From Candidatus Methanomethylicaceae archaeon GD_Cm_T35_P0_bin.15 (GTDB taxonomy: Archaea > Thermoproteota > Methanomethylicia > Methanomethylicales > Methanomethylicaceae): a stretch of DNA of 64,000 nt. The DNA lies in NCBI GenBank assembly GCA_038801785.1, contig JAULTD010000001.1, forward strand, positions 441,568 to 505,567, read 5' to 3'. The notes under the pieces were generated by a model, which had not been told where the DNA came from, did not search any database, and saw only the letters and a list, made by a program, of their open reading frames with translations. Below, piece by piece: positions 33,484 through 56,508 of the stretch (position 1 is its first letter; each line of letters opens with the position of its first letter). The translations under genes were made by a program, and so were the position numbers.

Positions 33484-33504
33484 AGTTTGATCGCTAGTCG
33501 CGCT

Positions 33505-38430: not shown

Positions 38431-38460
38431 GTTTGTAGATTAAATAAGTTTTCCCACCGT

Positions 38461-39642: not shown

Positions 39643-39689
39643 CCCTAGAACGATCTGACTCGATCGGCTCTAGTCATGACCTCGGCGCT

Positions 39690-39900
39690 AAACATCTACA
39701 CTAGTCCAGTAGTCCACATTCCATTGGGGCACACTGCCCACCACGGAGTAGGTTTCCTGCGGGGATGTGAAGGCATACTGAACGCTGACCCAAGAATCAG
39801 CAATAGTCGCATCGACTGAAGATTCGCTCGGTACTGCAGGGACGGCTCCAAGTGAGGCAATTACTGCAAGTATTAGTAAAAAAGAATACTCGCCTCAAAT
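39690..39900 (-). pseudogene. Decayed 5' fragment of a DUF1616-family gene (paralog of 45266-46294); start codon mutated ATG->ATT
   Basis: The translation '..LILAVIASLGAVPAVPSESSVDATIADSWVSVQYAFTSPQETYSVVGSVPQ' matches 'LALAVIASLGAVSAVQGAPADATIAGSWASVQDAFVSLQDAYAVAGSVPQ'. Nucleotide alignment confirms it. Confidence 0.65.
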
Positions 39901-39997
39901 TCAATCTACATTAGTAAGCGTACGTTTTTGAGCATAACCTTCAACAAAAAGATTTCTCAAGAAGGTCTTTTATCAATAGGGGCACCAAACTATAGTT

Positions 39998-41002: not shown

Positions 41003-41050
41003 GGTTATACGATTGTAGACGCGATATTACTTAAGCACGAAATGATCGTT

Positions 41051-42325: not shown

Positions 42326-43292
42326 ACCAGCGGTAAGTCTTGTTCAAGCCCACTTTAAACTCAGTTGTAGGATTATAATGCAATATCTTCTTTGCTTTCT
42401 CTATAGAGGCTAGCAACCTGAACTTCTGATCCCAGTCTCTTCTCTCCCTATATATAATTCCAGCATGATTTCCAGTAATCTCGTTTACCCAAGCAGCTAG
42501 ATCGTTTATCTTTATTTCGCGATTTGTGCCGAGATTGATTGCTTCACCAATAGCATCCTCGTAATAGGCCATTGCCAACAAGCCGTTTACGATATCACCC
42601 ACGTAAGTGAAATCACGAGTTTCTTCTCCAGTCCCTGTAATAGGCAAAGGTTGCCGATTCATGGCCCAATAGAAAAAGTTCGGGATTACATTACGATATT
42701 TGCCTGGAACCTCTCCCGGACCATAAGAGTTGAAGAATCTAGCGTTCACTATAGGCAGATCGTACAAGTTATAGTAACAATTAGTGTAGAGCTCACCTAA
42801 CATCTTAGTGACTTGATATGGCGTATACAATTTCATGGAAACATCGTGCTCTTCGAAGGGCATCTTTGAATCCGAACCGTAAATACCGCAACCGGAGGAA
42901 GAGTATATGAAACGCTCCACTCCAACAAGATGTGAGTATTCGAGCATCCTCAAAATCCCCATTCCGTTGACCATTAAATCTGTCTCAGGATTATCGACCG
43001 AATTCTGATTGGCAAAATGGGCCGCCAGATGGTATACGATTTCAGGTTTTCTTTTGAACGCCCGTCTGAGGTACTCTTCGTCCAATACACTGCCTTTAAT
43101 AAACCGTATCTTTTGTCCACGGGGAACATTCCACTCGTATGAGGAAGAAAGGTCATCCAAAATGATGACTTCTTTTGTATCCAAGGTGTTGAGTGTTCTG
43201 ACCAAATTTCCTCCTATAGCACCTGCTCCGCCTGTTACCAGAACAGTCTTTCCTTTAAAGGAGTTTTTTACTTCTTCCATGTTAATCACCAA
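42282..43292 (-). CDS. NAD-dependent NDP-sugar epimerase/dehydratase (extended SDR)
   Basis: 'VLVTGGAGAIGGNLV'. Catalytic 'YQVTK'. Confidence 0.85.
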   Translation of the reverse strand: MVINMEEVKNSFKGKTVLVTGGAGAIGGNLVRTLNTLDTKEVIILDDLSSSYEWNVPRGQKIRFIKGSVLDEEYLRRAFKRKPEIVYHLAAHFANQNSVDNPETDLMVNGMGILRMLEYSHLVGVERFIYSSSGCGIYGSDSKMPFEEHDVSMKLYTPYQVTKMLGELYTNCYYNLYDLPIVNARFFNSYGPGEVPGKYRNVIPNFFYWAMNRQPLPITGTGEETRDFTYVGDIVNGLLAMAYYEDAIGEAINLGTNREIKINDLAAWVNEITGNHAGIIYRERRDWDQKFRLLASIEKAKKILHYNPTTEFKVGLNKTYRWFANNWTEIQRSCEF

Positions 43293-44226
43293 TCCTGTAG
43301 TACCATCTCATCCAATCTACAGTTCTTCGAATGCCTTCCTCAGGAGGCACAGTAGGATTGTGTTTCAAATCACGTATTGCTTTCGAACAGTCAATGGTCT
43401 TTACCTTCGTAGTAAAGGGCTCACTCTCATTATACGAAACAAGCGAGTCATCCCTGCCAACAATCTTTAGCACTATGTCAGAATAGTCCTCAATACTCCG
43501 CTCCCATTCAGGTTTGCCTGCCACATTGTAGACTTCACCGGGTATGAAATTATTAATGATGTTTGCAAAAGTCATGCAGGAATCTTCGACATAATCTATA
43601 ATTCTCTTATGACCTTTGAAGACAACATACGGCTTGTTAAATAACGCGTGGTATATGAACTTGGGTATAAACCCCCTATAAGGAGTGTAATGCTCGCCAG
43701 GCCCATAGCAGTTCACAGGACGAACTCTTACAATCTCGGTTCCAAACATGCTGGCAGAGTTCATGCACATCAACTCGCCCGCCCATTTGGTAATGGCATA
43801 ATCATTCATCTGATAAGTTTCCTTGATTGGCTTGCACTCCATTATATCTTCGGTCATTACATCGTTATAATCGCCGTAAACCTCTGCTGAAGAAAAGAAG
43901 ATCATCCTAAACCTGAGTTTTTCCTGCAATCTAAGCATATTCTTTGTACCAATAACGTTGGTCTCCCAGAGATTTTCATAATAATCTTCGCCATTCCATC
44001 GACCGTACTCGGCTGCCAAGTGATAGACGTAATCAAACCGGTCTTTTTCAAAGACTTTTTCAATTTGTCGAAAATTACGTACATCTGCGCGTATGTAGTT
44101 ATCGCGATCATTATTGAAAAGATCGAGTGCGATAACACTATGACCGCGCTTTCTTAACTCATTTACTAAATTTGTACCAATAAAGCCTGCTCCACCGGTA
44201 ACGAGTATCCGTTGAGTATCCATCAT
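43282..44226 (-). CDS. NAD-dependent NDP-sugar epimerase/dehydratase (extended SDR)
   Basis: 'ILVTGGAGFIGTNLV'. Catalytic 'YAITK'. Overlaps the downstream epimerase by 11 nt. Confidence 0.85.
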   Translation of the reverse strand: MMDTQRILVTGGAGFIGTNLVNELRKRGHSVIALDLFNNDRDNYIRADVRNFRQIEKVFEKDRFDYVYHLAAEYGRWNGEDYYENLWETNVIGTKNMLRLQEKLRFRMIFFSSAEVYGDYNDVMTEDIMECKPIKETYQMNDYAITKWAGELMCMNSASMFGTEIVRVRPVNCYGPGEHYTPYRGFIPKFIYHALFNKPYVVFKGHKRIIDYVEDSCMTFANIINNFIPGEVYNVAGKPEWERSIEDYSDIVLKIVGRDDSLVSYNESEPFTTKVKTIDCSKAIRDLKHNPTVPPEEGIRRTVDWMRWYYRIGD

Positions 44227-44236
44227 ACGAACCTCC

Positions 44237-45214
44237 TTAACCTTTATTTTCCTTGTTGTTCTTGATACTGTATAATATAAGAGAGGTCATCGCCAGAAAC
44301 ATGCCCCCAATTGTCACACCTAAACAGACTATCGCCAAAGGTATACTGAAATACCGCGTCTGATTGAAGATTAGCAGTAAATAGCCTCCAAGTATGAGGC
44401 CTGCGGAAAACAAGGAGATCCCGGGGACGCCTAGGACTAACAAAGGACGCCGATGAACGGTCAGCTTCGCGATCGTATCGATAAGCTCGAGTCCATGTCT
44501 TAAAGGGCTCTTTTTCGAGGTTTGTGCCAGCCCATCATAAAGTACGGTTACAGGCACTTCCTTAATCTTCAGATTGTGCTCCTTAGCTATAGCCAGCTGT
44601 TCGGACTCAGTGCCGTAGCCCTCCACTTCACAGGACAGCATCGCCTCAAGGGCCCTCTTGGAATAGGCGCGGTAGCCGCTCTGGGTATCCTTAACAGTAC
44701 CTCCCCCGCTTAACGCATTGATTATGCGCAGCCCAAACCTGCGGTAGAGGGGCGCATCGGTCCAAGCGCCGTCAACGTAGCGAGAGCCCAGCGCGATATC
44801 GGCCTCGCCGTTCAGTACGGGCTCAATCAATAGCGGGATCTCATTCGGATCGTGCTGGCCGTCAGAGTCCAGCGTCACGGTCACGTCGGCCCCTATGTTC
44901 AAGGCGTGCTGGAACAGGTGCTTCAGGGCTACGCCTTTCCCCTGGTTCTTCTTGCTCGATATCACGTAGGCTTTCAGGGCCGAGGCTACCTCGCTGGTCA
45001 TATCTTCAGAGCCATCATCGTAGACCAGCACCTCGTCGACGTACTTCTGGGCTTTGATTATGACGCTGGGGAGAGTCCTGTCCTCGTTGTAGGCGGGTAT
45101 GCACGCAACGATCAGCTTGTGCTCGCTTACTGGAAGGGTGCGCTCCAGCATATCGCCCGTAACTCCCCGGCTACAAGTAACGCTTTTTGCCCTTACGTGC
45201 TCTTTACTTATCAT
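44237..45214 (-). CDS. GT2 dolichyl-phosphate sugar synthase-like glycosyltransferase (Dpm1/AglJ-like) with C-terminal TM helices. Mosaic GC: high at the 5' end, low at the 3' end
   Basis: 'IPAYNEDRTL', 'DDGSEDMT' and 'LDSDGQHDP' (DXD). Two C-terminal TM segments. Confidence 0.85.
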   Translation of the reverse strand: MISKEHVRAKSVTCSRGVTGDMLERTLPVSEHKLIVACIPAYNEDRTLPSVIIKAQKYVDEVLVYDDGSEDMTSEVASALKAYVISSKKNQGKGVALKHLFQHALNIGADVTVTLDSDGQHDPNEIPLLIEPVLNGEADIALGSRYVDGAWTDAPLYRRFGLRIINALSGGGTVKDTQSGYRAYSKRALEAMLSCEVEGYGTESEQLAIAKEHNLKIKEVPVTVLYDGLAQTSKKSPLRHGLELIDTIAKLTVHRRPLLVLGVPGISLFSAGLILGGYLLLIFNQTRYFSIPLAIVCLGVTIGGMFLAMTSLILYSIKNNKENKG

Positions 45215-45265: not shown

Positions 45266-46294
45266 TCAGAAGGGCGGCGACGTCACATTTACCCACAGGT
45301 GAGTCCACAGCCCGGTATAATCGAGCCTCTTTGTTGTGCTGTTGAAGGACCACAGCTCGAAGATTATCCGCTGGCTCGGGCCGGTCTTGGAAAGGGTCAG
45401 CTCCAAGGGATAAGTCCCGCTGCCGTTGTTGGTCAGAACCTTATCGAGCCGGAGCACCGTACTTGCGGGGGAAGGGTCCATCTCAGTCGAGTTATCCCCC
45501 ACTTTCACCAGGACCGAGTACCACATCGGCTCACCTACATGGTTCCCAACATAAGCGTACAGGTCGATGGTCTGGCCGGATACCACCTCCTTCGGGTAGT
45601 CGCTCAGCTTCTGGCCGGGACCCAGTATGCCGAGTTCCGAGAAGGACTCCCCGGTCCTCCCCGCGGCAACAGCAAGTGAGGCGGGCACCAGCGCAACGAC
45701 CAGGAGCACGGCGACAATCGCAAGGGCAGCATGCTCCATCGTAAATATCGTGGATTCCTCGCCGTCATCGCCAGCGCCCTCCCCTTTCCGGACCTTGGGC
45801 TTCGCTGTCTCTCCGTTTACCCTCACAACGCTGCCTCCCCTGACCCTCAGCCACGCCTTCCAGAGCCCGCCAGCACCGAACCTGAAGACCAGCCCGGCGG
45901 CGATAACCGCCCCGGCGGTGGCCGCGATCATGGCGACCGTCCCGTTCTGGTTCTGCCTTTCGCCTGCCTCCTTGACTGCCGCCATATCCCGCATGACCTC
46001 TTGAGCGATGGAGCTCGCCTCCTGCGCCAGCGTTGCAGAGCCGGCCGGGTCAGAACCAGCCATGGCCTCGGCGCGCAGCATCTTCTCTATCGCCTGGTTC
46101 AATAATTCTACATCCCTCTGCGGCACGCTGCCCGCCACGGCGTAGGCGTCCTGCAGCGACACGAACGCGTCCTGGACGCTGGCCCAGGAGCCGGCAATGG
46201 TCGCATCGGCCGGAGCGCCCTGCACTGCGGAGACGGCGCCAAGCGAGGCGATCACCGCCAGCGCCAATGAGAAGACGGGCAACCTCAGGTTCAT
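45266..46294 (-). CDS. DUF1616-family archaeal membrane protein (signal/TM N-terminus, extracytoplasmic C-terminal domain)
   Basis: C-terminal '..FSELGILGPGQKLSDYPKEVVSGQTIDLYAYVGNHVGEPMWYSVLVKV..' fits the DUF1616 pattern recalled from memory. High GC. Confidence 0.5.
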   Translation of the reverse strand: MNLRLPVFSLALAVIASLGAVSAVQGAPADATIAGSWASVQDAFVSLQDAYAVAGSVPQRDVELLNQAIEKMLRAEAMAGSDPAGSATLAQEASSIAQEVMRDMAAVKEAGERQNQNGTVAMIAATAGAVIAAGLVFRFGAGGLWKAWLRVRGGSVVRVNGETAKPKVRKGEGAGDDGEESTIFTMEHAALAIVAVLLVVALVPASLAVAAGRTGESFSELGILGPGQKLSDYPKEVVSGQTIDLYAYVGNHVGEPMWYSVLVKVGDNSTEMDPSPASTVLRLDKVLTNNGSGTYPLELTLSKTGPSQRIIFELWSFNSTTKRLDYTGLWTHLWVNVTSPPF

Positions 46295-46298
46295 CTCA

Positions 46299-47858
46299 TC
46301 AGTAAGCGTGCCTCTTCGGCCCCGCCACCACGATCCTGTACCCTTTCTCAGCCATGGCCCTCAGGCTTATAGACAGTTCTTCCGCATCATGCGAAGACAC
46401 CACAACGATCGCGGCAGGGGGCCCCACCTTCTCCGCCACCCTCTTCAGGGCGCTGCTTGCCGGCGCGTCCTTCGCTGCTTCCTGCACCGCCCGGTTTTCC
46501 AGGTCCAGCACGCTGCCCAGCCCGCTCCCCTGCTCACCGGCGCCAACAAGGTGGATGTCCCGCCTCAGGCGTAGGGGGTCCACCGGCTGCAGCACCCTCC
46601 CGGCGGGCGGCGCCACGGCGATGCGCTTGGTCAGCACCATCGATCTTATCAGGGCTTCCCGGGGGCTCGCCAGCCCGGCAGACTCGACCACCCCGCCAGA
46701 GTCGAAGGCGGCCATTGCGACAGGCACGCCCTCCCTCGCCAGGGTAAGCGCAGAGGTTATCAGGCTGTAGGCAAGCTCGTCGGCGTCCTCCGCGTCCTTA
46801 GCCGTCAGATCAGCCACAATGATCGCGGGCTGGACCTGCCCTCCCGCGAACTCCTTCACCACGAGCTCCTGGAGCCTGAACGTGTGCCTCCAGTCCACGT
46901 CCTTGACCCTGTCCCCCGGCTGGTACTCCCGGCTGCCGTAGTAGTCCACGCCGCGCCTCGAGGGCTTCTGAACCCTTATCGGGGGGGTAGCCATCGACGG
47001 ATAATAACCGGCGGCAGCCTGCTCCAGGTACTTCTCGGCGAGCCATTCCGCGTACCGCGCCTTCGGGATGACGTGCACGTCCAGGGGGTACAGCACCTGC
47101 CCCACGGAGACGAAGCCCCACGGATCCGTCACGGTCGCGTTAATCGCCACGTCGGACGGCGCGGCCAAGGGGGGCGTCACCGTCAAACTCCCCTCGTATC
47201 CCCCTCCCGCCTCCAGTGCGAGGGCGTCCGCGGAGACGGAGACCCACGGCTGCGCAGGCTCCATCTGCAGCGTCACCGGGATCTGCGCGCCTGTCCTGAG
47301 GCTGAGGGGGGCGCTCACCGTCTCCCTGACGAGGACGCGCCTCTGCGCCGTGGCGACGGAGATCGGCGCCCTCGGGATGTTCATGACGGAGTGGGCAAGT
47401 ATTCCTATCAAATATGCTCCACATAACATGCACGCCAGGATCAGCTCGGCCCTTGCCAGCACCAGCGATGTCAGGGACAGCAACGCCAAAGCGGTGAGCA
47501 GGGTCCGCGGCAAGGGGGCGATGCTCCTCCCCGCCCTGAACTTCCCCCCGGTCTGGGCCGCGCCCGCCGATTTAAGGCACGGCTCCATCCTCAGCAGGAG
47601 GGGCGCGGCAGCCGCTGCGGCTGCGTATGGCCCCGTAATAGGTGCAAGCAGCAGGGGCACAATGAACAGCGTCGCGAAGAGGAGCGCGAGCGCCTGCCCT
47701 GCACCCCTTATTTTTATCCGGTACATCCTAAAGGCGTGGGCGGCGAGCAGCAGCACTGCGAACGCTGACCCTGGCAGCCCGGCGGCGATGGACGAGGCTG
47801 CGAGCACGATCATTATGTATGCGTCCAGCGCCTTCCGCACCACAGGCCGCTCTCTCAT
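46299..47858 (-). CDS. DUF58-domain protein (MoxR partner, vWA-like fold) with N-terminal TM segments
   Basis: 519 aa. Its start overlaps the MoxR stop by 4 nt. 'DVDWRHTFRLQELVVKEF' is DUF58-like. Confidence 0.6.
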   Translation of the reverse strand: MRERPVVRKALDAYIMIVLAASSIAAGLPGSAFAVLLLAAHAFRMYRIKIRGAGQALALLFATLFIVPLLLAPITGPYAAAAAAAPLLLRMEPCLKSAGAAQTGGKFRAGRSIAPLPRTLLTALALLSLTSLVLARAELILACMLCGAYLIGILAHSVMNIPRAPISVATAQRRVLVRETVSAPLSLRTGAQIPVTLQMEPAQPWVSVSADALALEAGGGYEGSLTVTPPLAAPSDVAINATVTDPWGFVSVGQVLYPLDVHVIPKARYAEWLAEKYLEQAAAGYYPSMATPPIRVQKPSRRGVDYYGSREYQPGDRVKDVDWRHTFRLQELVVKEFAGGQVQPAIIVADLTAKDAEDADELAYSLITSALTLAREGVPVAMAAFDSGGVVESAGLASPREALIRSMVLTKRIAVAPPAGRVLQPVDPLRLRRDIHLVGAGEQGSGLGSVLDLENRAVQEAAKDAPASSALKRVAEKVGPPAAIVVVSSHDAEELSISLRAMAEKGYRIVVAGPKRHAY

Positions 47859-48793
47859 TCCGCCTTCGGGACGGGCGCCTCCTTCATCACGCCGTCGATG
47901 ATCGATCTGGGGGTCACGCCGTCGATCTCGGCCTCGGCCTTGACCCGTATCCTGTGCTCCAGCACCGGGAGAGCCAGCTGCTTCACGTCGTCCGGTATAA
48001 CGTAGTCCCTCCCCCTCATGAATGCCATGGCTCGGGAGCCCTTGTAGAGCGAGGTCGTGGCCCTCGAGCTCGGCGCCACCAGCACGTCGGGGTTCCTCCT
48101 TATCCTGTCAGCCAGGTCCGTGATGTAGCCGCGTATCCCGTCGGAGACGTAGACCCGCTTCACCGCCTCCCTAACCTTCACGATATCGCCGAGCGAGGCG
48201 GCCACCCTCACGTCCGGGCTGTCGATATAGTCGATCCTCTCCAGCACCCTTGCCTCCGCCTCCTTGTCGAGGTAGCCGCTCCAGATCCTGAACATGAACC
48301 TGTCCGCCTGCACCTCCGTAAGCTGGGACGTGCCCTCAAAGCCGTACGGGATCTGCGTGGCGATGACCATGAAAGGCTGCGGCACGGCGTGCGTCCGTCC
48401 TTCCACGGTGACCTGCCCCTCCTGCATCACTTCTAGGAGGGCGGACTGGGTCCGGGCTGTGGTCCGGTTGAGCTCGTCCGTCAGCACGATGTTCCCGAAG
48501 ACTGGCCCCGGTATGAACCTCGACTTGCCGTCCGGCGTGTAGAAGTAAAATCCGGTCACGTCAGAGGGCAGCATGTCAGGCGTGAACTGGATCCTCCTGA
48601 ACTCGCCGCCGATCGCCCTGGCGAAGGTCTTTGCGACAAGCGTCTTCGCGGTGCCCGGGAGGCCCTCAATGAGCACGTGCCCCCCGCTGAATAGTGCCGC
48701 CAGCATGACCTCCTTCACGTCGTCCTTCCCCAGGACCACTTTCGAGACTTCGTCTATGATCCTCCTCGGTACCTCGAGCAGCTCGGATGCCAT
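47855..48793 (-). CDS. MoxR-family AAA+ ATPase
   Basis: Walker A 'GLPGTAKT'. Walker B 'VLTDELNR'. 312 aa is the typical MoxR length. Confidence 0.92.
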   Translation of the reverse strand: MASELLEVPRRIIDEVSKVVLGKDDVKEVMLAALFSGGHVLIEGLPGTAKTLVAKTFARAIGGEFRRIQFTPDMLPSDVTGFYFYTPDGKSRFIPGPVFGNIVLTDELNRTTARTQSALLEVMQEGQVTVEGRTHAVPQPFMVIATQIPYGFEGTSQLTEVQADRFMFRIWSGYLDKEAEARVLERIDYIDSPDVRVAASLGDIVKVREAVKRVYVSDGIRGYITDLADRIRRNPDVLVAPSSRATTSLYKGSRAMAFMRGRDYVIPDDVKQLALPVLEHRIRVKAEAEIDGVTPRSIIDGVMKEAPVPKAE

Positions 48794-48799
48794 CTCAGT

Positions 48800-49735
48800 T
48801 CAGCTCCTCCGCCACAGTGGTAATGTTGTAAGTGTGGCAATCAGTGTTATTAAGGCTAGTGAGCCGGCCTGCGTCGACGCCGCGGCGTGGAGTACGGCGA
48901 GCACCAGCTTTGCGTCATCGAGCGGCGCCCTCGGCAGGTGCGACTGGTCGATAATCACCTGCCTGCTCCCGTCGAGATTAACCAGCCTCCCGGCTGCTAG
49001 GGAGTTGCCGTCCACGCCGGCCATGCTGTTTATGATTATGCTGGGGTCTGCAACCGCTATCACGCAGCCGTCCCCCAGCTTCTGGTACCCTGCCACCGGC
49101 AGCGGGCCGCTCGGGTCGCCGGCAGACCTTGCAGAGTTCCCGTCCGTGTCGAGGAAGCTGAACTCCGATGACCTTACGATGACGCTTACGGAGCCCCCGC
49201 TGACTGTGAGTGACGTCGCATGGTTGAGGGCGATGTCCCCGGTCCCGTTCAGGGGGTATGAGAGGTCGCTGGCCCTCGGGAACATCGCGTTCCGGTAGTT
49301 GAATATGGGGTCCATCAGGCGCTCGCCGGTGAACCGCATCTCCGCCCCCAGATATTCGAGCACCTGGTTCCCGTAGCCATAGTCGTCCATAATCAAAAGG
49401 ACGCCCCCCTGCACGACGAACTGCCTGATCGCGGATAGGTCGCTCCCGTTCAGCGGGACGTACGGGATCACTATGAGGGTCGAGTTGCCCGGATCCGCCG
49501 GCAGGTCTGCCAAGGAGGTTATGCCCGCAGCGTTGTTCCGTTCCCTGAAGTCGGTCAGCCCGTTCCAGAACGGGTTGTCAATGCGGAAGTCGCCCGTGGG
49601 GGGGAAGTACCAGACGAGCAGGGCTAGCGACATCACTACAGCAAGCGTGAGGGCGGGTAAGAGCTTACGAGCCTCCAATTCCAAGGCGCTCCGCCACATA
49701 CCTTGCGTAATCGTCCGCCGCTGAGAGGTCATCAA
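48800..49735 (-). CDS. DUF4350-like domain protein with N-terminal TM anchor; start uncertain (the 49735 start overlaps the upstream gene by 71 nt)
   Basis: 'LIVIPYVPLNGSDLSAIRQFVVQGGVLLIMDDYGYGNQVL' resembles DUF4350/GldG-like. Frequently found with MoxR-DUF58. Confidence 0.5.
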   Translation of the reverse strand: MMTSQRRTITQGMWRSALELEARKLLPALTLAVVMSLALLVWYFPPTGDFRIDNPFWNGLTDFRERNNAAGITSLADLPADPGNSTLIVIPYVPLNGSDLSAIRQFVVQGGVLLIMDDYGYGNQVLEYLGAEMRFTGERLMDPIFNYRNAMFPRASDLSYPLNGTGDIALNHATSLTVSGGSVSVIVRSSEFSFLDTDGNSARSAGDPSGPLPVAGYQKLGDGCVIAVADPSIIINSMAGVDGNSLAAGRLVNLDGSRQVIIDQSHLPRAPLDDAKLVLAVLHAAASTQAGSLALITLIATLTTLPLWRRS

Positions 49736-51755
49736 CGTTGGGCGCCTCGCAGGAGTAGAGGGACTTTTCGGCCAGGTACGTCAGGTTCCTGAAAGCAAGC
49801 GCGGTCCCGTTCAGCTTGGGCTCGGCGGCGCGCAGGAACTCGTTCAGGGTCATGTCCGGGGACATCTGGACCCCGGCGAACGAGCTTACGGACCGGACGG
49901 CAGAGAGGTACGATGCAATTACCTTCTGGCGCCCCTGGCTCAGCCCGGACGCCCTGACGGCGTTAGCCATGCTCACCGCGGGGATGTGCGCCATGATCTG
50001 GCCCATGCCTTCTGGCGCGGAACCGTCGGCCGGAGCCTGGGACACCACGGGACCGGCTGGGGAGCCGGAGTCAGAGCCGGCGCCAGAGCCAGAGTCGTTC
50101 TCCCCGCCCAAGCGCCTGACCCTCCTAAAGAAGAGCAGGCCTGCGAAGGCAAGCACGGCAGTACCTGCAGCAACGACCGGGTTCACTATGAATATGGTTG
50201 CTTTGGCATCGCCGTCGGCGTACCATGGCTCCGCAGGATATACGGAGACGGATACCGTATGGTAGCCCGCGATCCAGAGGGAGGGGGGCAGCTCAAAGCC
50301 CACGGAGAACGAGCCGTTCTCCGCCAGGAGGGTCCTGGAGCCGCCGGTCATATTGACGGTCACGGTCGCGTTGGTCAGGGGTGCGGTGCCGGCATAGGCG
50401 CTCCCCGATATCACCACCGTCGACGGGATGAGGGCGAAGGGAGGGCACGAGAGGGAGACGTTGACGGGCACCCTCTCCACCCTCAGGGTTCTGGAGGCGC
50501 TTCCGCCGGCATAGACGCCGCTGGGGCTCACCTCCGCGTAAAGATAATGGCTGCCCGTGGCCGCCGAGGGATCGATCGTGAAGGTCGTCACGAACGAGCC
50601 GTCGGGGCCGCTTGCAGGGGCGTCCAGGAGCGAGCCGTCCAGGTATATGCGGATAGACCTCCCCTCCTGCGGCATCCCTCCAGAAGTCACCTTCCCCGTT
50701 ACTGTAACGTCTTTCCCGGGATAGGATACGGGCGGCGATACCAGCTCAACGGAGGTATTGTTGAAGAGGAGCGTGAGCACCAGCGGCTCGCTCATGGAGG
50801 AGCGGTACAAGCTGCCGTCGTCTGCCGACGGGATGTAGAGGGCGAAGAGGTATGCCGGGCTCTCGTAGAGGAACGGGATGGCGAGGAGGCAGGTGTAGGA
50901 GCCGTCCGGGCCGGTCACCGCGGATACGGCGCTCTCGCCGTTGAACAGGACCGTTATGCCCTTCCCGCCGAGACCGGTGCCGTTGCAGGTAAGGGAGCCG
51001 GATAGCTGGACAGAGCCTCCAACCCAGACCTCGCTGGCGTTCGAGGTGAGCGTGAGGGAGGTCGGAGACGCGTAGGTCGGGTTGGTTCCATTGATCCCGC
51101 CAGAGCCGTTAGTACCATTAGTCCCGCCAGGCACGGTACCGTTCTGCCCGCTAATCCCGCTCAGCCTCTCGCGGTAAGCCAGGAACAGCCGCAGGTAATA
51201 GTCGATAAGATCTTCAACGCTCTGGACGCTGCCCTCCAGCTCGGCGTAGGCCATCCTCGCAGGGCTGCCTTCCGGCGTCTTGGGCACGCCCAGGCTGTTG
51301 CCGATGGAGACGGTCGTGGACTTTACGTCCTTCAGCTGGATCTTCGCCTTCGCGATGGCGATGGCGGCGTCGTGCAGGGTCTGGTTGGCGCCCTGTGCGT
51401 TGTTCTGGTCCAGCAGGCGCGAGGTCTCGTCCGCCAGCCTCTCGATCTCCTCCACCTCGTCGCTCACCCTGGAAGTCTGCTCGGTATACTGCCCGAAGAG
51501 GGAGCGCACGTTCGAGGGGAGGGAGATCAGGTTGTACCTGGCGAGCAGCTCCCGGATATGGTCGTAATCGCTCTCGGGTATCAGCCTGAAGATGTCCGCA
51601 TAATAGGAGAGGAGCGAGTAGGCGTCCATTATGTTCGGGGCGGTGGACGGCTCCTCGTGGGGGGTAAAGTCGAGCTGGGCCCTGACGGGCGCCTGCAGAC
51701 CGGTCAGCAGCATGAGCATCAGCGGGGCTACCAGGAAGGGGTATCTCGCAGTCAA
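49665..51755 (-). CDS. Large cell-surface protein: signal peptide, coiled-coil region, Asn/Gly/Thr-rich linker, Ig-like beta repeats, TM anchor and a short cytoplasmic DUF4129-like tail
   Basis: N-terminal 'MTARYPFLVAPLMLMLLTGLQAPVRAQ'. 'GTNGTNGSGGINGTNPT' linker. C-terminal TM 'VVAAGTAVLAFAGLLFF'. 696 aa. Confidence 0.6.
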   Translation of the reverse strand: MTARYPFLVAPLMLMLLTGLQAPVRAQLDFTPHEEPSTAPNIMDAYSLLSYYADIFRLIPESDYDHIRELLARYNLISLPSNVRSLFGQYTEQTSRVSDEVEEIERLADETSRLLDQNNAQGANQTLHDAAIAIAKAKIQLKDVKSTTVSIGNSLGVPKTPEGSPARMAYAELEGSVQSVEDLIDYYLRLFLAYRERLSGISGQNGTVPGGTNGTNGSGGINGTNPTYASPTSLTLTSNASEVWVGGSVQLSGSLTCNGTGLGGKGITVLFNGESAVSAVTGPDGSYTCLLAIPFLYESPAYLFALYIPSADDGSLYRSSMSEPLVLTLLFNNTSVELVSPPVSYPGKDVTVTGKVTSGGMPQEGRSIRIYLDGSLLDAPASGPDGSFVTTFTIDPSAATGSHYLYAEVSPSGVYAGGSASRTLRVERVPVNVSLSCPPFALIPSTVVISGSAYAGTAPLTNATVTVNMTGGSRTLLAENGSFSVGFELPPSLWIAGYHTVSVSVYPAEPWYADGDAKATIFIVNPVVAAGTAVLAFAGLLFFRRVRRLGGENDSGSGAGSDSGSPAGPVVSQAPADGSAPEGMGQIMAHIPAVSMANAVRASGLSQGRQKVIASYLSAVRSVSSFAGVQMSPDMTLNEFLRAAEPKLNGTALAFRNLTYLAEKSLYSCEAPNVDDLSAADDYARYVAERLGIGGS

Positions 51756-52096
51756 AGGATCCTGAAGCCGAAGAGGATCTCCGTCACCCTCGAGGCGACT
51801 ATCACCAGGAAGACCGCGAAGAGCGCGTACCCCGTCAGGTCGAGCACCCGGTTGGTCTTCGGCTTGAGCGGGGAGTGGAGCAGGGTCATGATGAAGTACT
51901 CGATTATGTAGAGCGATACGTAGAGGTCCAGGCGCGTCTCGTTGAACAGGGACAGGACGAGGGTAGTGATGGCGTACGCCGCCCCTGTCGAGAGGAGGTA
52001 ACGCTCATTGAGCCTCAATTGGTGGGATCGCGGCTTCGGCTTGTGTTGGGGGCGCCGACTGTTCTGCAGCCTCGGCTGTGGTTTTTTCGCCTGCAC
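51752..52096 (-). CDS. Small membrane protein (2-3 TM); its 5' part overlaps the upstream ORF in another frame, so the true start is probably further downstream
   Basis: The hydrophobic C-terminal 80 aa are preceded by a basic low-complexity N-terminus. Overlaps the following gene by 4 nt. Confidence 0.35.
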   Translation of the reverse strand: MQAKKPQPRLQNSRRPQHKPKPRSHQLRLNERYLLSTGAAYAITTLVLSLFNETRLDLYVSLYIIEYFIMTLLHSPLKPKTNRVLDLTGYALFAVFLVIVASRVTEILFGFRIL

Positions 52097-52841
52097 CTGC
52101 GCCTGTGCCAGCCTTCACGCTGAGCCTTACGATGTGCTTGCCGCCGCCGGCCTCCTCTCCGGTGATCGTGACGGGGGAGCCGGTGCACTCGGCAACGACT
52201 GACGCCACCACCGAGGCTATGGGGCTCCCGATGTTCTCGAAGATCTTCATCCGCCTGTGGTCGAGCTTCGGGCCCCTCACCTCCACGTTCACGGCGGGGC
52301 CCTCCTGCACCACGCGGACCCCCTCAGCCAGATCGGTCGAGCCGGTCATCACCGATGATAGTGAGCCTTCGATGTCCGTGCCCTCGAGCCCAAGGTGGGC
52401 GAACCTCCTCACGGCAGCCGTCCCCAGCGTGGTCACTAGGATGCCCATCTCGTCCGGTCTCCTGCCGTAGCGGACGATGAGCCGGTTCGGCAGCGCCCTC
52501 TCGATCCGCGGGCTGTCGCGGGGCGAGACGGCGAGGAACGCGCGAGGGCTGCCGCCTGTGAGCGGCGAGGGCAGGTAGACCGCCTTCGAGCCGATCCCGA
52601 GCTCCTCTATCAGGGCCGCAGTGTTGTCGAGCCCGGCTTCCAGGAGCATGCTGCTGATCTCCGGCGGGACCCTCGGCTGCCCCCTCGCCAGCGCGAAGGA
52701 GATGGCCGCCAGGATAATCGTGGAGATGCCCAGCGCGGTGAAGGGCACGAAGCTCAGTACGAAGTGCGACGTAAGCGCGAGGAATGCCCCCGACACCAGG
52801 AGGCATATCCCCAGGATGTGGAAGGACGAGCGGTGCGCCAT
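52005..52841 (-). CDS. Hypothetical membrane-anchored protein (2 N-terminal TM, then a soluble domain, then an A/E/T-rich tail)
   Basis: 278 aa. Directly abuts the upstream gene (52841/52842). No recognised motif. Confidence 0.45.
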   Translation of the reverse strand: MAHRSSFHILGICLLVSGAFLALTSHFVLSFVPFTALGISTIILAAISFALARGQPRVPPEISSMLLEAGLDNTAALIEELGIGSKAVYLPSPLTGGSPRAFLAVSPRDSPRIERALPNRLIVRYGRRPDEMGILVTTLGTAAVRRFAHLGLEGTDIEGSLSSVMTGSTDLAEGVRVVQEGPAVNVEVRGPKLDHRRMKIFENIGSPIASVVASVVAECTGSPVTITGEEAGGGKHIVRLSVKAGTGAGAGEKTTAEAAEQSAPPTQAEAAIPPIEAQ

Positions 52842-53495
52842 TTATGCGGTCCTCCGCCCCATCTTTCCTGCACCTGCGCCTGCAAGCCTGTCAAGGGAGC
52901 CGTCCTTTCCAACGAGCCCCAGGCGGAAGTACCTGTACTTGCGGACGGAGGCTGCGACCGCCATGGCTTCGGTGAAGAGCGCGAGCGAGAACGTGACGGG
53001 CTCCAGGCGGATGCCCCACGGCGTGTAGTTCAGCACCAGCCCGATCAGGGGGACGACCGCCAGGCTCAGCCCCACCGAGAGCGCGAGCCTCTCAAGCCCT
53101 TCCAGATCGCCCGCCTTGGAGTAGAGCGCCTCGACCAGCATCGACCCGGGCAGGAAGAGGATGAAGAACGCCCCCAGCACATACCTCGCGTAGATGAGGG
53201 GCGGCCCGGTGACATACAAAACAAGGGGTACGGTCGCCGCGACGAGGGCGGTGACGCCCCAGAACCAGAGGCTCCTGAAGTTGAGCATGTAGCCGGCGAG
53301 GCTGCCGGGCGGGGACTCGTCCACAAGGTCCAGCTGCCCCCGCTTCCACATGACGTAGACTGCCCTGGCCGCGTCGTTGAACTTTACGCCCCTCTCCCTT
53401 ACGAGAGCGTCTACCAGGTCGGGCAGCCTGGGACTGTGCATCCTCCTGGCGGTATCGGCGATGGCTGGGAACAGCTCTGTATCGTCCTTTGCCAA
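52842..53495 (-). CDS. Membrane protein with an N-terminal cytoplasmic helical (wHTH-like) domain and 4 TM helices
   Basis: 217 aa. 'LVLYVTGPPLIYARYVLGAFFILFLPGSMLV' is a TM region. Confidence 0.45.
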   Translation of the reverse strand: MAKDDTELFPAIADTARRMHSPRLPDLVDALVRERGVKFNDAARAVYVMWKRGQLDLVDESPPGSLAGYMLNFRSLWFWGVTALVAATVPLVLYVTGPPLIYARYVLGAFFILFLPGSMLVEALYSKAGDLEGLERLALSVGLSLAVVPLIGLVLNYTPWGIRLEPVTFSLALFTEAMAVAASVRKYRYFRLGLVGKDGSLDRLAGAGAGKMGRRTA

Positions 53496-53498: not shown

Positions 53499-54569
53499 TC
53501 AGCTCGAGCTTATTATCTCGGTTATCCTCTCGCCGCTCTTCCCGTCGCCGAACGGGTTGACCCACGAGCGGTCCCTGTCAAGCATCATCCCGGCGCACTC
53601 CAGAATCTTCTCAGGGCTGGTGCCGGCGAGCATGTTCGCGCCGGCCTCAACGGTCTCCGGCCTCTCCGTGTTGTACCGCAGCGTGACGCACGGCACCTTC
53701 AGGATGCAGGCCTCCTCCTGCACTCCCCCCGAGTCGGTGAATATGAGCCCGGCGCCGCACTCCAGCCTCAGGAACGAGAGGTAGTCGACGGGCTCGGTGA
53801 TCGCTATGTTGCCGGTCTTTACCGTTATGCCGAACTCCCGGAGCCTCTTCCGCGTCCGGGGGTGCATCGGATAGATAATCTTCTTCCCGAACTTCCCGGA
53901 GACGAGGTCCAGCCCCTTCAGTATGCTGGCGAGCCGCTCGGGGTTGTCGACGTTCTCCTGCCGGTGCATCGTCATAAGGAAGTACCCCTCGGGGTCCATC
54001 AGCCCGGCTCCCGCGCCGCTCTCCTCCGCCAGCCTGAGGTTCTGCCGGACGGCATCGACGACCGTGTTCCCGGTCACGAAGACGCCCTTCTCGATCCCTT
54101 CCCTGGCAAGGTTGGCGCGGGCGGTCTCGGTGGGCGCAAACAGCAGGTCGGAGACGTGGTCTGCCGTCACCCGGTTTATCTCCTCAGGCATGGTCCGGTC
54201 GTAGCTCCTCAGCCCCGCCTCGACGTGCCCGAGCCGGATGCCGAGCTTGACCGCCGCGAGGGCCCCGGCCAGGACCGTATTCGTGTCGCCCTGCACCAGC
54301 GCGATGTCCGGCTTCTCCTCCTTCAGGGGCTTCTCCATGCCGATCAGCATCCTGCCGGTCTCCTCCGCGTGGCTCCCCGAGCCGACGTTGAGGTTGTACC
54401 TCGCCCCGGGCAGCCTGAGCTGGGAGAAGAAGACCGCGTCCATGTTGTATGAGTAGTGCTGCCCGGTGTGGAGGATGAAATAGTCCAGACCGGCGCGTTC
54501 GCAGGCCCTGATCACGGGGGACATCTTTATTATCTCGGGCCTGGTCCCGAGGATGATCGCGACCTTCAT
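53499..54569 (-). CDS. wecB: UDP-N-acetylglucosamine 2-epimerase (non-hydrolysing)
   Basis: 'MKVAIILGTRPEIIKMSPVIRA' and 'HTGQHYSYNMD' match the WecB/MnaA signature. 356 aa. Confidence 0.92.
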   Translation of the reverse strand: MKVAIILGTRPEIIKMSPVIRACERAGLDYFILHTGQHYSYNMDAVFFSQLRLPGARYNLNVGSGSHAEETGRMLIGMEKPLKEEKPDIALVQGDTNTVLAGALAAVKLGIRLGHVEAGLRSYDRTMPEEINRVTADHVSDLLFAPTETARANLAREGIEKGVFVTGNTVVDAVRQNLRLAEESGAGAGLMDPEGYFLMTMHRQENVDNPERLASILKGLDLVSGKFGKKIIYPMHPRTRKRLREFGITVKTGNIAITEPVDYLSFLRLECGAGLIFTDSGGVQEEACILKVPCVTLRYNTERPETVEAGANMLAGTSPEKILECAGMMLDRDRSWVNPFGDGKSGERITEIISSS

Positions 54570-54636: not shown

Positions 54637-55131
54637 CTATATGGCGCCTTCCTCGGGGGTCAGGATGTTCACCCTCAGCGCCACGGTCTCGTCGGTGCAG
54701 AGACGCTCGAAGAGCTCGTCATATTCTTTCCTCACGGACTTCGTCTCGAAGTACCGGTTGTATTCGATGACCCGGTCCCGGCACCCGATACCCGAGTCGT
54801 TGAAGAAGTCGCGGGTGATGGGCAGTATCTTGTCAGGGCGGTTGCACGGGATGAGGAAGAACTCCTCGACTATCCGGTCGGTCTCGAGGACCCTGTAGCA
54901 GATGATGACGCCTTTCTTGGCGTAGATGCCGCCGTTGCCGTTACCGCTGCAGTTGCCGTTACCGCTGCAGTTGCCGTTACCGCTGCAGTTGCCGTTACCG
55001 CTGCAGTTGCCGTTACCGCTGCCGTTGACTCTGCCGCTGTTGGCGCTACACCCCAAAGAGTTGCCGTTTCCACTCGGGCAGTTGCTCTCAACCTCGGTCA
55101 TTTCCCTCTCACCTTGCTCCTGTTGCTCCAA
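54637..55131 (-). CDS. Hypothetical protein with an N-terminal Cys/Asn/Gly hexapeptide tandem repeat (NGNCSG x4-5) and a ~100-aa C-terminal domain of unknown function
   Basis: An 18-nt perfect tandem repeat at 54937-55026 encodes the repeat. An (AATCC)n pentamer repeat sits immediately upstream (55143-55185). Confidence 0.45.
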   Translation of the reverse strand: MEQQEQGEREMTEVESNCPSGNGNSLGCSANSGRVNGSGNGNCSGNGNCSGNGNCSGNGNCSGNGNGGIYAKKGVIICYRVLETDRIVEEFFLIPCNRPDKILPITRDFFNDSGIGCRDRVIEYNRYFETKSVRKEYDELFERLCTDETVALRVNILTPEEGAI

Positions 55132-55764: not shown

Positions 55765-56508
55765 CTACCTCTTGACCACTCTTTTATAGATCCCCAAGAG
55801 TAGCCCGGCGACTGATTCTGGCATATGCTCTCTAGGGAGGCTCTCCAACACAGTTCCATCGTACCGAACTACCTTGCATCCGGATGCCAAAGCTTCAAGT
55901 GCGGCCTTGCTGGTATCATTTATCAGCCTGCCGCCAATTGATTTCACGTCAATGTAGTACTCGTACTCTGAGAAGATCTGAGGGAGGCGGGAGTGGGGTA
56001 TCGGCGATGCAAACCGGTCATGGAGCGTCAGGCTGAGACCAAGTTCTTTTGCGTACTGCCGGGCTAGATCATCAGCCCCGTAGGAGAAAGAGAAGGCGGT
56101 TGCCGGCACATGCTGCCGCCTATCGTAGAAGAGCCAAGTCTCTATCGGGATTGGAAGATAGATCGTACCTTCAGGGGCCCCTTCTAATAGATCCCGCGTG
56201 GAGACGAGGATAGCATCGGCATCGCGGTGATATGCGCGCTTCTCTCCCCACATGCCGCGGATGTCCGACCCGTGGTAGTGAAAAACAACAGGCTTACTAG
56301 GGGCTAGGGATTTAATTGCGCGGCCGATGCCTTCACAGGAATGTATGTGAGTTATATCATAGAAGGGGGCCAGGAGGAGGGATGCGATGCGGAAGAGTGT
56401 TAAAGAGGGAAGACAGAGGGATCCCTGATCATCCCAAGGAGGTTTCTTAGAGGCTAGAACAGTAGATTCGACCGAGCCCTTGAGAATGCGCGAAAAGATC
56501 GAGGCCAC
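55765..56508 (-). CDS. Glycosyltransferase-like protein (GT-B C-terminal half-like)
   Basis: 'SKAALEALASGCKVV' resembles the GT1/GT4 C-terminal nucleotide-sugar binding region. 247 aa. Confidence 0.4.
   Translation of the reverse strand: MASIFSRILKGSVESTVLASKKPPWDDQGSLCLPSLTLFRIASLLLAPFYDITHIHSCEGIGRAIKSLAPSKPVVFHYHGSDIRGMWGEKRAYHRDADAILVSTRDLLEGAPEGTIYLPIPIETWLFYDRRQHVPATAFSFSYGADDLARQYAKELGLSLTLHDRFASPIPHSRLPQIFSEYEYYIDVKSIGGRLINDTSKAALEALASGCKVVRYDGTVLESLPREHMPESVAGLLLGIYKRVVKR

Follow-up and report, generated by a model that had tools for sequence, protein, structure and literature searches.

We report that an eight-gene operon of Candidatus Methanomethylicaceae archaeon GD_Cm_T35_P0_bin.15, lying within a window of 64,000 nucleotides (the whole stretch of DNA analysed), belongs to the arCOG01314/arCOG02884 system as a member of bathyarchaeal type. 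This kind of system is already known: it was predicted by comparative genomics in 2015 by Makarova, Galperin and Koonin (Biochimie), who published a matching list of components as a 'putative novel secretion or membrane-remodelling system' (PMC5898192). We propose, with a probability of about 0.55, that the operon specifies a multi-subunit complex spanning the cytoplasmic membrane, in which MoxR and DUF58 remodel or assemble an external structure from inside. A preliminary description of this DNA had the general idea that MoxR and DUF58 drive a system directed at some component of the cell envelope, which is in keeping with that prediction (PMC5898192).

The interval 53495..45266 is occupied by eight co-directional minus-strand genes (g1 to g8), coding in order for the N-half of DUF1616, DUF7982, DUF8044, a 696-aa Ig-repeat protein, DUF4350, MoxR, DUF58 and the C-half of DUF1616, with the names DUF7982 (PF25939) and DUF8044 (PF26161) taken from precomputed Pfam annotation. 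The genes named in the preliminary description are all present where it had placed them on the minus strand, but its list of five missed g2 and g3. Reading of the sequence shows that g1 and g2 abut, g2/g3 and g4/g5 overlap by 14 nt, g3/g4 and g6/g7 overlap by 4 nt (TTGA and ATGA, respectively), and gaps of 6 nt and 4 nt separate g5 from g6 and g7 from g8. The tight coupling noted earlier is hence borne out (junctions of -14 to +6 nt), but its characterization as 4-nt overlaps applies to only two of the seven junctions. The eight genes constitute a genuine, tightly packed archaeal operon. Upstream, a gene for a 356-aa wecB-like UDP-GlcNAc 2-epimerase (53499..54569, minus strand; PF02350 Epimerase_2, identical contig) terminates 3 nt before g1 and is, therefore, possibly co-transcribed with the operon. 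It is a context gene outside the conserved core, adjoining the operon only in the closest relatives (loci L001-L004), with a gap of ~250 nt in L003.

Almost all of ~85 related loci, drawn from Bathyarchaeia, other archaea and many bacteria of the Dehalococcoidia, keep the six genes from DUF7982 to DUF58 colinear as a core. The loci include one on a complete Dehalococcoidales chromosome and one on a contig that continues directly downstream with nusA-infB-rbfA-truB; g2 and g3 are individually colinear in 66 and 69 loci. An order kept in ~85 loci across two domains of life goes far beyond what chance would produce. Outside archaea, the core is almost never accompanied by the split DUF1616 pair. 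Conservation of the neighborhood had been named beforehand as a test, and the domain calls of the preliminary description likewise stood up, with DUF58, DUF4350 and DUF1616 above their Pfam cut-offs and DUF4129 backed at the family level. Thus, neither unsupported domains nor a neighborhood confined to one genome, the two outcomes held to be fatal to that description, was encountered.

In ~14 archaeal loci, nearly all from Bathyarchaeia, the system is adjoined by most or all of an ABC module (FtsX/MacB_PCD/537-aa/ABC_tran), which in ~11 of these, including L011, lies directly 3' of the DUF1616 C-half on the same strand. This linkage, the relationship of DUF4350 to GldG, an ABC-transporter accessory protein, and the published prediction itself (PMC5898192) speak for the original Makarova model of a true protein secretion system, which would provide an export route for separate substrates, with the Ig proteins as parts of the conduit and a MacB-type ABC transporter as a possible partner. 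We nevertheless regard this model as unlikely: the window and its closest relatives, L003 and L007, yielded no such module, and the Dehalococcoidia loci nothing beyond weak generic ABC_tran matches in L058 and L062; conservation extends to no obvious channel-forming subunit and to no candidate substrate gene; and the sole large external protein, g4, is membrane-anchored and constant.

Based on its AF2 model, Foldseek searches and Pfam searches of its orthologues, g4 (696 aa; 49665..51755, minus strand) is predicted to be a type I membrane glycoprotein. On that strand are encoded, in succession, an N-terminal signal peptide, a distal helical bundle (aa 45-204, nt 51623-51144), an NGT-rich linker, three beta-sandwich (Ig/MG-like) domains (aa 230-524, nt 51068-50184), a TM helix (aa 526-549, nt 50180-50109), a disordered linker, and a predicted cytoplasmic, three-helix DUF4129-like tail (aa 607-693, nt 49937-49677). 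The AF2 model is confident (pLDDT 85.5), and its Foldseek matches comprise the MG domains of C3/C4, the adhesin 6xi3 and the archaeal S-layer protein 7ptp. In Pfam searches DUF4129 is sub-threshold in the g4 of the window (E 0.09) and recurs in 4/4 orthologues (best E 9e-5); CarboxypepD_reg is matched among the orthologues (E 1.9e-8), and Transglut_core in neither g4 nor its orthologues. Conservation in the family (828 representatives) extends over the full length, and its alignment shows Y616, E639, E663 and Y667 of the tail to be invariant. Rather than the neighboring surface protein and client that it had been taken for, g4 is a constant, colinear core subunit.

The architecture of g4, in which an Ig stalk bears a helical head at its distal end and a single TM helix leads to a conserved cytoplasmic tail, together with a vWA-like neighbor, would also fit an integrin-like adhesion or signaling receptor, whose ectodomain binds a ligand while MoxR/DUF58 acting on the tail switches its affinity or relays a signal. 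The Bifidobacterium PFNA cluster, in which MoxR and DUF58 are paired with an FN3 surface protein, has been discussed as a sensing system (PMC8430577). However, the related loci share no conserved kinase, response regulator or transcription factor, and the conservation of five further membrane proteins better fits a structural assembly; a receptor hence appears very improbable.

The product of g6 (312 aa; 47855..48793, minus strand) is a MoxR-proper AAA+ ATPase (AAA_3 E 9.6e-52, AAA_lid_2 6.6e-20; PDB 2R44 E 4.3e-72), whose translation displays Walker A (GLPGTAKT) and Walker B (VLTDE) motifs and no TM segment, and it is predicted to be soluble and cytoplasmic. Its partner g7 (519 aa; 46299..47858, minus strand) matches PF01882 with 30.5 bits against a GA of 23.4, but only over profile positions 2-48; DUF58 was matched in 22/22 of its orthologues. 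It comprises three TM hairpins (aa 9-158) followed by an Ig-like and then a vWA-like domain, with K/R-rich loops and the conserved motif REYxPGDxxxxIDW. Residues 340-519 are predicted to adopt the vWA fold; no match was obtained when PDB sequences were searched by profile. At the MIDAS position, (N/D)-L-(S/T)-x-x stands in place of DxSxS, so that ligands may not be bound in the classical vWA manner.

This degeneracy renders the metal insertion entertained in the preliminary description unlikely. MoxR/vWA pairs such as NorQD do insert metals (PMC9976466), and g6 has a weak Pfam match to bpMoxR (8.3e-9), which could be taken to indicate either a chelatase-like chaperone for metal-cofactor insertion or a MoxR-vWA conflict (defence) system. 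Yet metalloenzyme genes are not conserved in the vicinity, PADLOC yielded no relevant match, a beta-propeller or effector partner is absent, and AAA_3 scores far above bpMoxR, so that we give such roles hardly any credence.

The DUF1616 halves g1 (217 aa; 52842..53495, minus strand; TTG start) and g8 (342 aa; 45266..46294, minus strand) match positions 3-119 (E 2.4e-28) and 150-307 (E 2.6e-16), respectively, of the 307-position profile PF07760, with the same partial coverage in their orthologues. An unassigned, predicted cytoplasmic N-terminal domain of ~75 aa in g1 precedes four TM helices and a K/R-rich C-tail, and the predicted order in g8 is a signal peptide, an external helical segment, a TM helix, a cytoplasmic loop, a second TM helix and an external Ig-like domain. 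The DUF7982 protein g2 (278 aa; 52005..52841, minus strand) combines a TM hairpin (residues 6-54) with a predicted cytoplasmic alpha/beta domain; its AF2 model (pLDDT 86.6) resembles known folds only weakly (YslB, E 0.011; BcsD; TRAPP Bet3; H-NOX). The small DUF8044 protein g3 (88 aa; 51752..52018, minus strand) starts at a TTG within its overlap with g2 and, from its hydrophobic blocks and loop charges, has ~3 TM helices. The arCOG01314-type, GldG/GIFT-like DUF4350 protein g5 (292 aa; 48800..49678, minus strand), with 414 homologues, exceeds the Pfam gathering score (PF14258 E 4.9e-13), also matches ABC_transp_aux (E 1.2e-3) and, at the profile level, weakly resembles the GIFT domain of IFT52 (E 0.35); its TM blocks define an N-terminal signal/anchor, a predicted external domain and a C-terminal TM helix.

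Topology was assigned from simple hydropathy and charge counts, with a positive-inside analysis of 20-84 orthologues per protein; the g4 tail, for instance, has 5.0 K/R within the first 15 residues past the TM helix. From the charge distribution together with the sequon statistics, MoxR, the DUF58 Ig-plus-vWA-like domain, the DUF7982 domain and the g4 tail would be cytoplasmic, whereas g4 would expose its helical head and its stalk of three Ig domains outside the cell, where the domain of DUF4350 and the Ig-like one of g8 would also lie. Sequon enrichment is limited to the g4 ectodomain (1.94 versus 1.05 expected) and the g8 C-domain (3.58 per 100 aa versus 1.07 expected) of archaeal orthologues, and g4 of the window has 16 sequons; both regions are probably N-glycosylated in archaea, and a DUF1616 protein of Haloferax volcanii is an experimentally shown AglB-dependent N-glycoprotein (PMC8241124). 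Orthologue counts revealed no enrichment in the DUF58 and DUF7982 domains; its absence from the DUF4350 domain, despite the predicted external position of the latter, indicates that this statistic is not decisive.

These sequons, the glycan-synthesis genes flanking the operon on both sides in the window and the 3-nt spacing of the wecB-like gene are in line with the preliminary description's view of a dedicated chaperone or maturation system for a neighboring surface glycoprotein, tied to a glycosylation island. However, glycan genes are detectable within 10 kb of only 7/20 archaeal and 0/20 Dehalococcoidia loci, a 99% identical strain carries a different island, the low-GC island having been swapped, and bacterial orthologues retain the whole core without sequon enrichment. 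The link to the island holds only in the present lineage and the island is not part of the system, and such a maturation role is rather improbable.

The predicted topology suggests ATP-driven, inside-out remodeling of a surface assembly, consistent with a membrane-spanning complex. By analogy to NorQ/NorD, and under the general coupling model for MoxR/vWA pairs (PMC9976466), a MoxR hexamer might be coupled to the cytoplasmic tail of g4 via DUF58 as an adaptor, with the DUF58 domain held at the membrane through its TM hairpins. ATP hydrolysis would then drive, from inside, the remodeling or assembly of the external Ig-stalk/DUF4350/DUF1616 structure, which, in an envelope of a single membrane and a protein layer, might serve as a cell-surface scaffold or export platform. 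MoxR-DUF58 operons with other membrane proteins are known from TgpA (PMC3507681) and the Bifidobacterium FN3/transglutaminase cluster (PMC8430577). In NorQ/NorD and similar pairs, our mechanistic template, a MoxR hexamer and a vWA-type adaptor remodel a membrane-protein target, but NorD has an intact MIDAS and a metalloenzyme client (PMC9976466), as against the degenerate MIDAS and the proposed client, the cytoplasmic tail of a surface protein, in our system.

Among bacterial counterparts, the six-TM transglutaminase TgpA, which, going by its Pfam annotation, presumably terminates in a DUF4129 domain, differs from g4 with its one TM helix, Ig repeats and lack of Transglut_core, and its operon is without DUF4350, DUF7982, DUF8044 and DUF1616. 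Mycobacterial Rv3690 presumably carries DUF4129 too, and its cluster has SpoIIM-like and RDD partners in place of DUF7982, DUF8044 and DUF1616. The likenesses lie in the co-transcribed MoxR and DUF58 genes of Pseudomonas aeruginosa PA2875-PA2874-PA2873 beside inner-membrane TgpA, with its large external domain and further TM helix (PMC3507681), and in the order DUF4350 (Rv3691), MoxR2 (Rv3692) and DUF58 (Rv3693), flanked by membrane proteins including SpoIIM-like Rv3694c and RDD Rv3695, of the Rv3689-Rv3695 cluster, which is co-regulated in M. chelonae and for which no Ig-repeat stalk protein is reported (PMC8191103). The Bifidobacterium PFNA cluster (pkb2-fn3-MoxR-DUF58-tgm) likewise has a gene for a beta-sandwich-repeat surface glycoprotein immediately 5' of MoxR and DUF58, but possesses a Ser/Thr kinase and a transglutaminase and lacks DUF4350 and DUF1616 (PMC8430577).

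The closest match remains the arCOG01314/arCOG02884 system, with which the operon shares a signal-peptide-bearing DUF4350 protein that ends in a C-terminal TM helix, the MoxR COG0714 ATPase, the DUF58 Ig+vWA protein, Ig-like cell-surface protein(s), small 2-5 TM proteins, and pfam07760/COG4743 membrane proteins with an Ig-like ectodomain (PMC5898192). The Bathyarchaeia-type subfamily differs in the splitting of DUF1616 over two genes, in the DUF4129-like tail of the Ig protein, absent from the published description, and in the predicted cytoplasmic location of the DUF58/vWA domain, placed extracellularly by Makarova et al. (PMC5898192). Moreover, while the published set was drawn from the euryarchaeal and crenarchaeal genomes available in 2014 (PMC5898192), the six-gene core is also abundant in Dehalococcoidia.

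The region at 45266-53495 of the window is filled by eight co-directional ORFs on the minus strand, which we number g1 to g8 in the order of transcription. They code for the N-terminal half of a DUF1616 protein (g1, 53495..52842, 217 aa), a DUF7982 protein (g2, 52841..52005, 278 aa), a DUF8044 protein (g3, 52018..51752, 88 aa), an Ig-repeat protein with a DUF4129-like tail (g4, 51755..49665, 696 aa), a DUF4350 protein (g5, 49678..48800, 292 aa), a MoxR protein (g6, 48793..47855, 312 aa), a DUF58 protein (g7, 47858..46299, 519 aa), and the C-terminal half of a DUF1616 protein (g8, 46294..45266, 342 aa). The names of g2 (PF25939) and g3 (PF26161) are those in the precomputed annotation of an identical metagenome contig; NCBIfam yielded no specific names. 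The preliminary description of a chaperone-like operon here is correct on the sequence, but its gene count is too low, and the 4-nt overlaps it reported hold for two of the seven junctions (g3/g4 and g6/g7) but not for the other five: g1 and g2 abut, g2/g3 and g4/g5 overlap by 14 nt each, and gaps of 6 nt and 4 nt separate g5/g6 and g7/g8, respectively. On the same strand, only 3 nt separate the end of a wecB-like epimerase gene (54569..53499) from g1, and a 51-nt spacer with a TTTATA element lies between g8 and the downstream GT2 gene.

A scan with one genome per species recovered 263 relatives, the closest being a MAG labelled Methanomethyliaceae (48%), and 80 of these loci were fetched. They derive from Bathyarchaeia, Baldrarchaeum, a Methanocella-labelled MAG, and many Dehalococcoidia; of two near-identical contigs, L001 is 100% identical to the window over 17.1 kb and L002 is 99% identical. 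Using the eight proteins of the window as phmmer queries against six-frame ORFs from every locus, we found the order g2-g3-g4-g5-g6-g7, hereafter the six-gene core, in essentially every long-enough locus of both archaea and bacteria, and the conservation of the neighborhood in other genomes is thereby confirmed. The consecutive DUF4350, MoxR and DUF58 genes (g5-g6-g7) likewise keep their order in almost every related locus of sufficient length. Apparent gaps at g4 in L058 and L064 are masked N runs, with a g4 protein bearing the TLREF...ERLLYS tail present in both, and only L081 has no g4 gene between g3 and g5.

The Dehalococcoidia loci with the core (L020, L025-L027, L029-L033, L035, L037, L039-L042, L044-L048, L050-L053, L055-L076 and L078-L087, which are all the loci fetched apart from those listed as archaeal) include the complete 2.3-Mb chromosome CP070842.1 (L026) and single-cell genomes, and their DUF4350 proteins show 39-44% identity. 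The assignment of the core to bacteria is sound, because nusA-ylxR-infB-rbfA-truB lies directly downstream of the DUF58 gene on one Dehalococcoidales contig. In a neighbor-joining tree from five concatenated core proteins (g2, g4, g5, g6 and g7) the archaea form a single clade, with the Dehalococcoidia in two groups around it. This implies a putative inter-domain transfer of the core between two lineages sharing habitats, for which a single event would suffice to account for the tree.

The two ends of the operon carry complementary parts of DUF1616 (PF07760): g1 matches positions 3-119 of the 307-position profile (E 2.4e-28) and g8 positions 150-307 (E 2.6e-16), and the window operon has no single polypeptide spanning the profile with both its TM part and its Ig-like part. 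Nearly all archaeal loci have the pair together with the core, and where both genes are present it is almost always split in the same manner (e.g. L005:5348-6978), the N-part covering about 2-119 and the C-part about 150-300 of the profile. The gene for the C-part is divergent and upstream of g1 in most Bathyarchaeia, and stands at the 3' end in the window and in L003, L007 and L011. We considered whether the partial genes might represent one gene broken by insertion of a MoxR cassette, and reject this because the split pair, in several arrangements, is kept in nearly all archaeal loci. In four Dehalococcoidia loci (L027, L030, L064 and L075) one gene within 10 kb codes for the full-length DUF1616, and another locus (L074) has a C-part fragment. 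The N-terminal 73 residues of g1 gave nothing significant in a Pfam scan. In Haloferax volcanii the DUF1616 protein HVO_2173 was shown by experiment to be glycosylated in an AglB-dependent manner (PMC8241124).

In the window the operon sits among glycan-synthesis genes. Upstream lie those for a flippase, a GT4 fragment, a FemAB-like acetyltransferase and a PIG-L deacetylase; downstream, at about 28-45 kb (28000-45200), is an island coding for GT2, GT4, an epimerase, an aldo-keto reductase, DUF2206, a deacetylase and a flippase, with a GC content of 37-45% vs 60-66%. The preliminary description had tied this glycosylation island to the operon, an association that does not hold as a property of the system: phmmer searches with 14 window glycan-pathway proteins found a match within 10 kb in 7/20 long archaeal loci and 0/20 long Dehalococcoidia loci, counts that are lower bounds because at least one GT2 detected by Pfam in L005 was missed by phmmer. 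The island is also strain-variable, since L002, which is 99% identical to the window over 52335-44257, diverges completely beyond 44257, just past the GT2 gene, and there carries different genes (ATP-grasp, deacetylase, PHP and three GT4).

A more frequent neighbor in Bathyarchaeia is a four-gene MacB-type ABC module (FtsX, MacB_PCD, a protein of about 537 aa with nothing significant in a Pfam scan, and ABC_tran). Roughly 14 of the archaeal relatives have most or all of it beside the system; they are almost all from Bathyarchaeia and lie among L005-L028 plus L077 (e.g. L005:678-5215 and L011:6026-12143). In about 11 of these it is directly 3' of the gene for the DUF1616 C-half on the same strand. 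L011 has g8 at the 3' end, as in the window, with the module directly after it; in the window, L003 and L007 phmmer did not find the module, and glycan genes occupy that position.

Three further features of the window were recorded. A 247-aa ORF at 55765-56508 (-) has a partial match to Glyco_transf_4 (profile 55-143) below the gathering score, and is possibly what remains of a truncated glycosyltransferase. A 164-aa ORF (54637-55131, -), located immediately upstream of wecB, contains a perfect-looking 18-nt tandem repeat (54934-55027, 5.2 copies, 98% match) that encodes (GNGNCS)n. A tRNA of 134 nt at 15038-15171 (-) is detected by Rfam (52.6 bits) and not reported by ARAGORN; its length suggests an intron-containing archaeal tRNA.

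Pfam profiles support the calls of DUF58 and DUF4350 made in the preliminary description. The DUF58 profile (PF01882) matches g7 with 30.5 bits against a cut-off of 23.4, over profile positions 2-48 only, and is matched by 22/22 orthologues tested; the hallmark REYxPGDxxxxIDW is invariant or nearly so. In 66 orthologues the site equivalent to the DxSxS of the MIDAS motif takes the form (N/D)-L-(S/T)-x-x (47 with N and 17 with D at position 350, 31 with S and 26 with T at position 352, and no conservation at 354), and hence the motif is degenerate relative to the DxSxS...T...D signature of a functional MIDAS. Sequence searches of the PDB with the DUF58 protein, as a single sequence or as a 22-sequence profile, returned no match. 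The adjoining g6 has the AAA_3 core (E 9.6e-52), the AAA_lid_2 domain (E 6.6e-20), intact Walker A (GLPGTAKT) and Walker B (VLTDE) motifs, and similarity to the MoxR-proper (MRP) structure 2R44 (E 4.3e-72), features by which its sequence is that of a MoxR-proper protein.

The predicted structure of g4 (mean pLDDT 85.5, from a 46-sequence alignment) starts with a signal peptide, and residues 45-204 form a bundle of long helices. An NGT-rich, disordered linker leads to three beta-sandwich domains at 230-524; these are followed by a TM helix at 526-549, a second disordered linker (551-601) and, at 607-693, a three-helix unit modelled with confidence. In Foldseek searches of the PDB the beta-sandwich part resembles the macroglobulin domains of complement C3/C4, and also matches the bacterial adhesin repeat 6xi3 and the Haloferax S-layer protein 7ptp; CarboxypepD_reg is matched by 3/4 orthologues (best E 1.9e-8). 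The helical head gave nothing significant in a Pfam scan. In the window protein DUF4129 (PF13559) scores 13.3 bits (E 0.09), below the gathering cut-off of 24.8; it matches over the three-helix tail in 4/4 orthologues tested (best E 9e-5), and Y616, E639, E663 and Y667 of the tail are invariant among 46 family members. An exhaustive HMMER search recovered 828 cluster representatives related to g4 (256 at E<=1e-30), mostly about 640-660 aa in length and aligned over their full length, whereas a k-mer-seeded search returned g4 only, its list of candidates having probably been filled by low-complexity words. A PHE(D/E)P motif just after the predicted signal-peptide cleavage site is near-invariant across the family; in the window it reads PHEEP (residues 33-37, nt 51659-51644), with H33 and P36 at >=90% across the family.

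Among the other components, g5 matches DUF4350 (PF14258, E 4.9e-13) and ABC_transp_aux (E 1.2e-3), and has hydrophobic blocks at residues 4-25 and 269-287 (84 orthologues). A profile of its homologues weakly touches the IFT52 GIFT domain (E 0.35), and this and the ABC_transp_aux match are consistent with the sequence relationship to GldG reported for this family (PMC5898192). A word-seeded search with g5 gave 414 homologues, the best non-self match being 53% identical. For g2 a TM hairpin and an alpha/beta domain are predicted (pLDDT 86.6), with weak structural neighbors in YslB (E 0.011), BcsD, TRAPP Bet3/TPC6 and H-NOX; a literature search found no functional study of DUF7982 or DUF8044.

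We predicted topology from hydropathy and K/R counts averaged over orthologue alignments of 20-84 sequences per protein. In g7 there are three hydrophobic blocks, each of hairpin length, and the N-terminus (1.4), the connecting loops (2.0 and 4.2) and the segment after the last block (2.8) are K/R-rich; by the positive-inside rule its Ig+vWA-like domain is predicted to be cytoplasmic. The same side is predicted for the tail of g4, which has 5.0 K/R in its first 15 residues, and for the domain of g2, which the hairpin puts on the K/R side. The N-half protein g1 is likely to span the membrane four times with both ends inside, and the predicted order of g8 is signal peptide, external helical segment, TM, K/R-rich loop, TM and external C-domain.

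N-glycosylation sequons in archaeal orthologues, set against the number expected from composition, served as an independent check. They are enriched in the g4 ectodomain (1.94 per 100 aa vs 1.05 expected; 2.61 vs 0.80 in the window protein) and the g8 C-domain (3.58 vs 1.07), and not in the g7 C-domain (0.44 vs 0.42) or the g2 domain (0.52 vs 0.52); the g4 ectodomain of Dehalococcoidia has 0.54 vs 0.56. As a caveat on this check, g5, predicted to be external, has no enrichment (1.17 vs 1.21). From the sequences, then, we infer that the MoxR protein, its vWA-like partner, the DUF7982 domain and the DUF4129-like tail share one side of the membrane, with the Ig stalk and helical head, the GldG-like domain and the DUF1616 Ig domain probably on the outside.

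As a hypothesis, we propose a mechanism by analogy with the NorQ/NorD pair, where the MoxR ring is plugged by a vWA protein that also presents the client (PMC9976466): DUF58 would couple MoxR to the g4 tail, and ATP hydrolysis would then drive remodeling or assembly of the external structure. More tentatively, with a probability of about one in four, the core may constitute a single ancient ATP-driven machine, in which a cytoplasmic MoxR hexamer and a membrane-tethered DUF58 adaptor would grip the DUF4129-like tail of g4 and transmit force through the membrane so that the surface layer is assembled or remodeled. Such a machine would be specific to prokaryotes enclosed by a single membrane and a protein layer, namely archaea and Dehalococcoidia, and DUF4129 would be a general cytoplasmic 'handle' for MoxR-DUF58 pairs that would serve bacterial TgpA-like proteins as well. 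Cultured Dehalococcoidia are not known to possess peptidoglycan and carry a protein layer at the surface, which makes the abundance of the core in that lineage suggestive.

Few prokaryotic AAA+ systems that still lack a known client are as widespread as the MoxR/DUF58 modules, and the candidate client here is unusually clean: the DUF4129-like tail of a surface Ig-stalk protein, which is conserved and predicted to be cytoplasmic. The gene for this protein lies two genes upstream of MoxR and keeps that place in both archaea and bacteria. Were the proposed inside-out coupling correct, it would offer a testable mechanism for the mycobacterial DUF4350-MoxR-DUF58 clusters and possibly, if TgpA carries a DUF4129 tail, for the Pseudomonas TgpA-MoxR-DUF58 operon. 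It would also point to a new machine for envelope biogenesis in Bathyarchaeia and Dehalococcoidia, which rank among the most abundant lineages of the subsurface.

Related bacterial arrangements are known in the PA2875-PA2874-tgpA operon of P. aeruginosa (PMC3507681), the mycobacterial cluster of Rv3691 (DUF4350), Rv3692 (MoxR) and Rv3693 (DUF58) with SpoIIM-like and RDD proteins (PMC8191103), and the fn3-MoxR-duf58-tgm cluster of Bifidobacterium (PMC8430577). The present operon is not a TgpA system, since Pfam finds no Transglut_core in its eight proteins or in the g4 orthologues. Neither is it of the Bat (Bacteroides aerotolerance) type, in which the TM-anchored canonical vWA proteins BatA/BatB and the TPR protein BatC stand beside MoxR and DUF58, because no VWA or TPR match was found by Pfam among the eight proteins. 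In GldAFG a GldG-like protein has ABC-2 permease and ATPase partners, whereas the module of the related Bathyarchaeia loci is of the MacB/FtsX type and phmmer with that module found no ABC genes in the window; the lack of an ABC-2 partner sets the operon apart from that system. A role in defense or conflict was also considered and rejected, as PADLOC finds nothing relevant.

By domain content, the operon agrees component by component with the arCOG01314/arCOG02884 system, for which Makarova, Galperin and Koonin in 2015 proposed a novel secretion or membrane-remodeling complex on the basis of neighborhood analysis (PMC5898192). Both have a DUF4350 (pfam14258) protein with an N-terminal signal or anchor and a single C-terminal TM helix (g5), adjoining MoxR (COG0714) and DUF58/vWA genes, an Ig-like surface protein (g4) and pfam07760 membrane proteins (g1 and g8). 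A full-text literature search found no later functional or experimental study of arCOG01314, DUF1616 or DUF4350. The kind of system is thus not new, and the operon confirms and extends that computational prediction. To it are added the precise six-gene core, the stable two-gene split of DUF1616, the abundance of the core in Dehalococcoidia, the DUF4129-like cytoplasmic tail on the Ig-stalk subunit, and a predicted cytoplasmic location of the DUF58 domain, the opposite of the published annotation.
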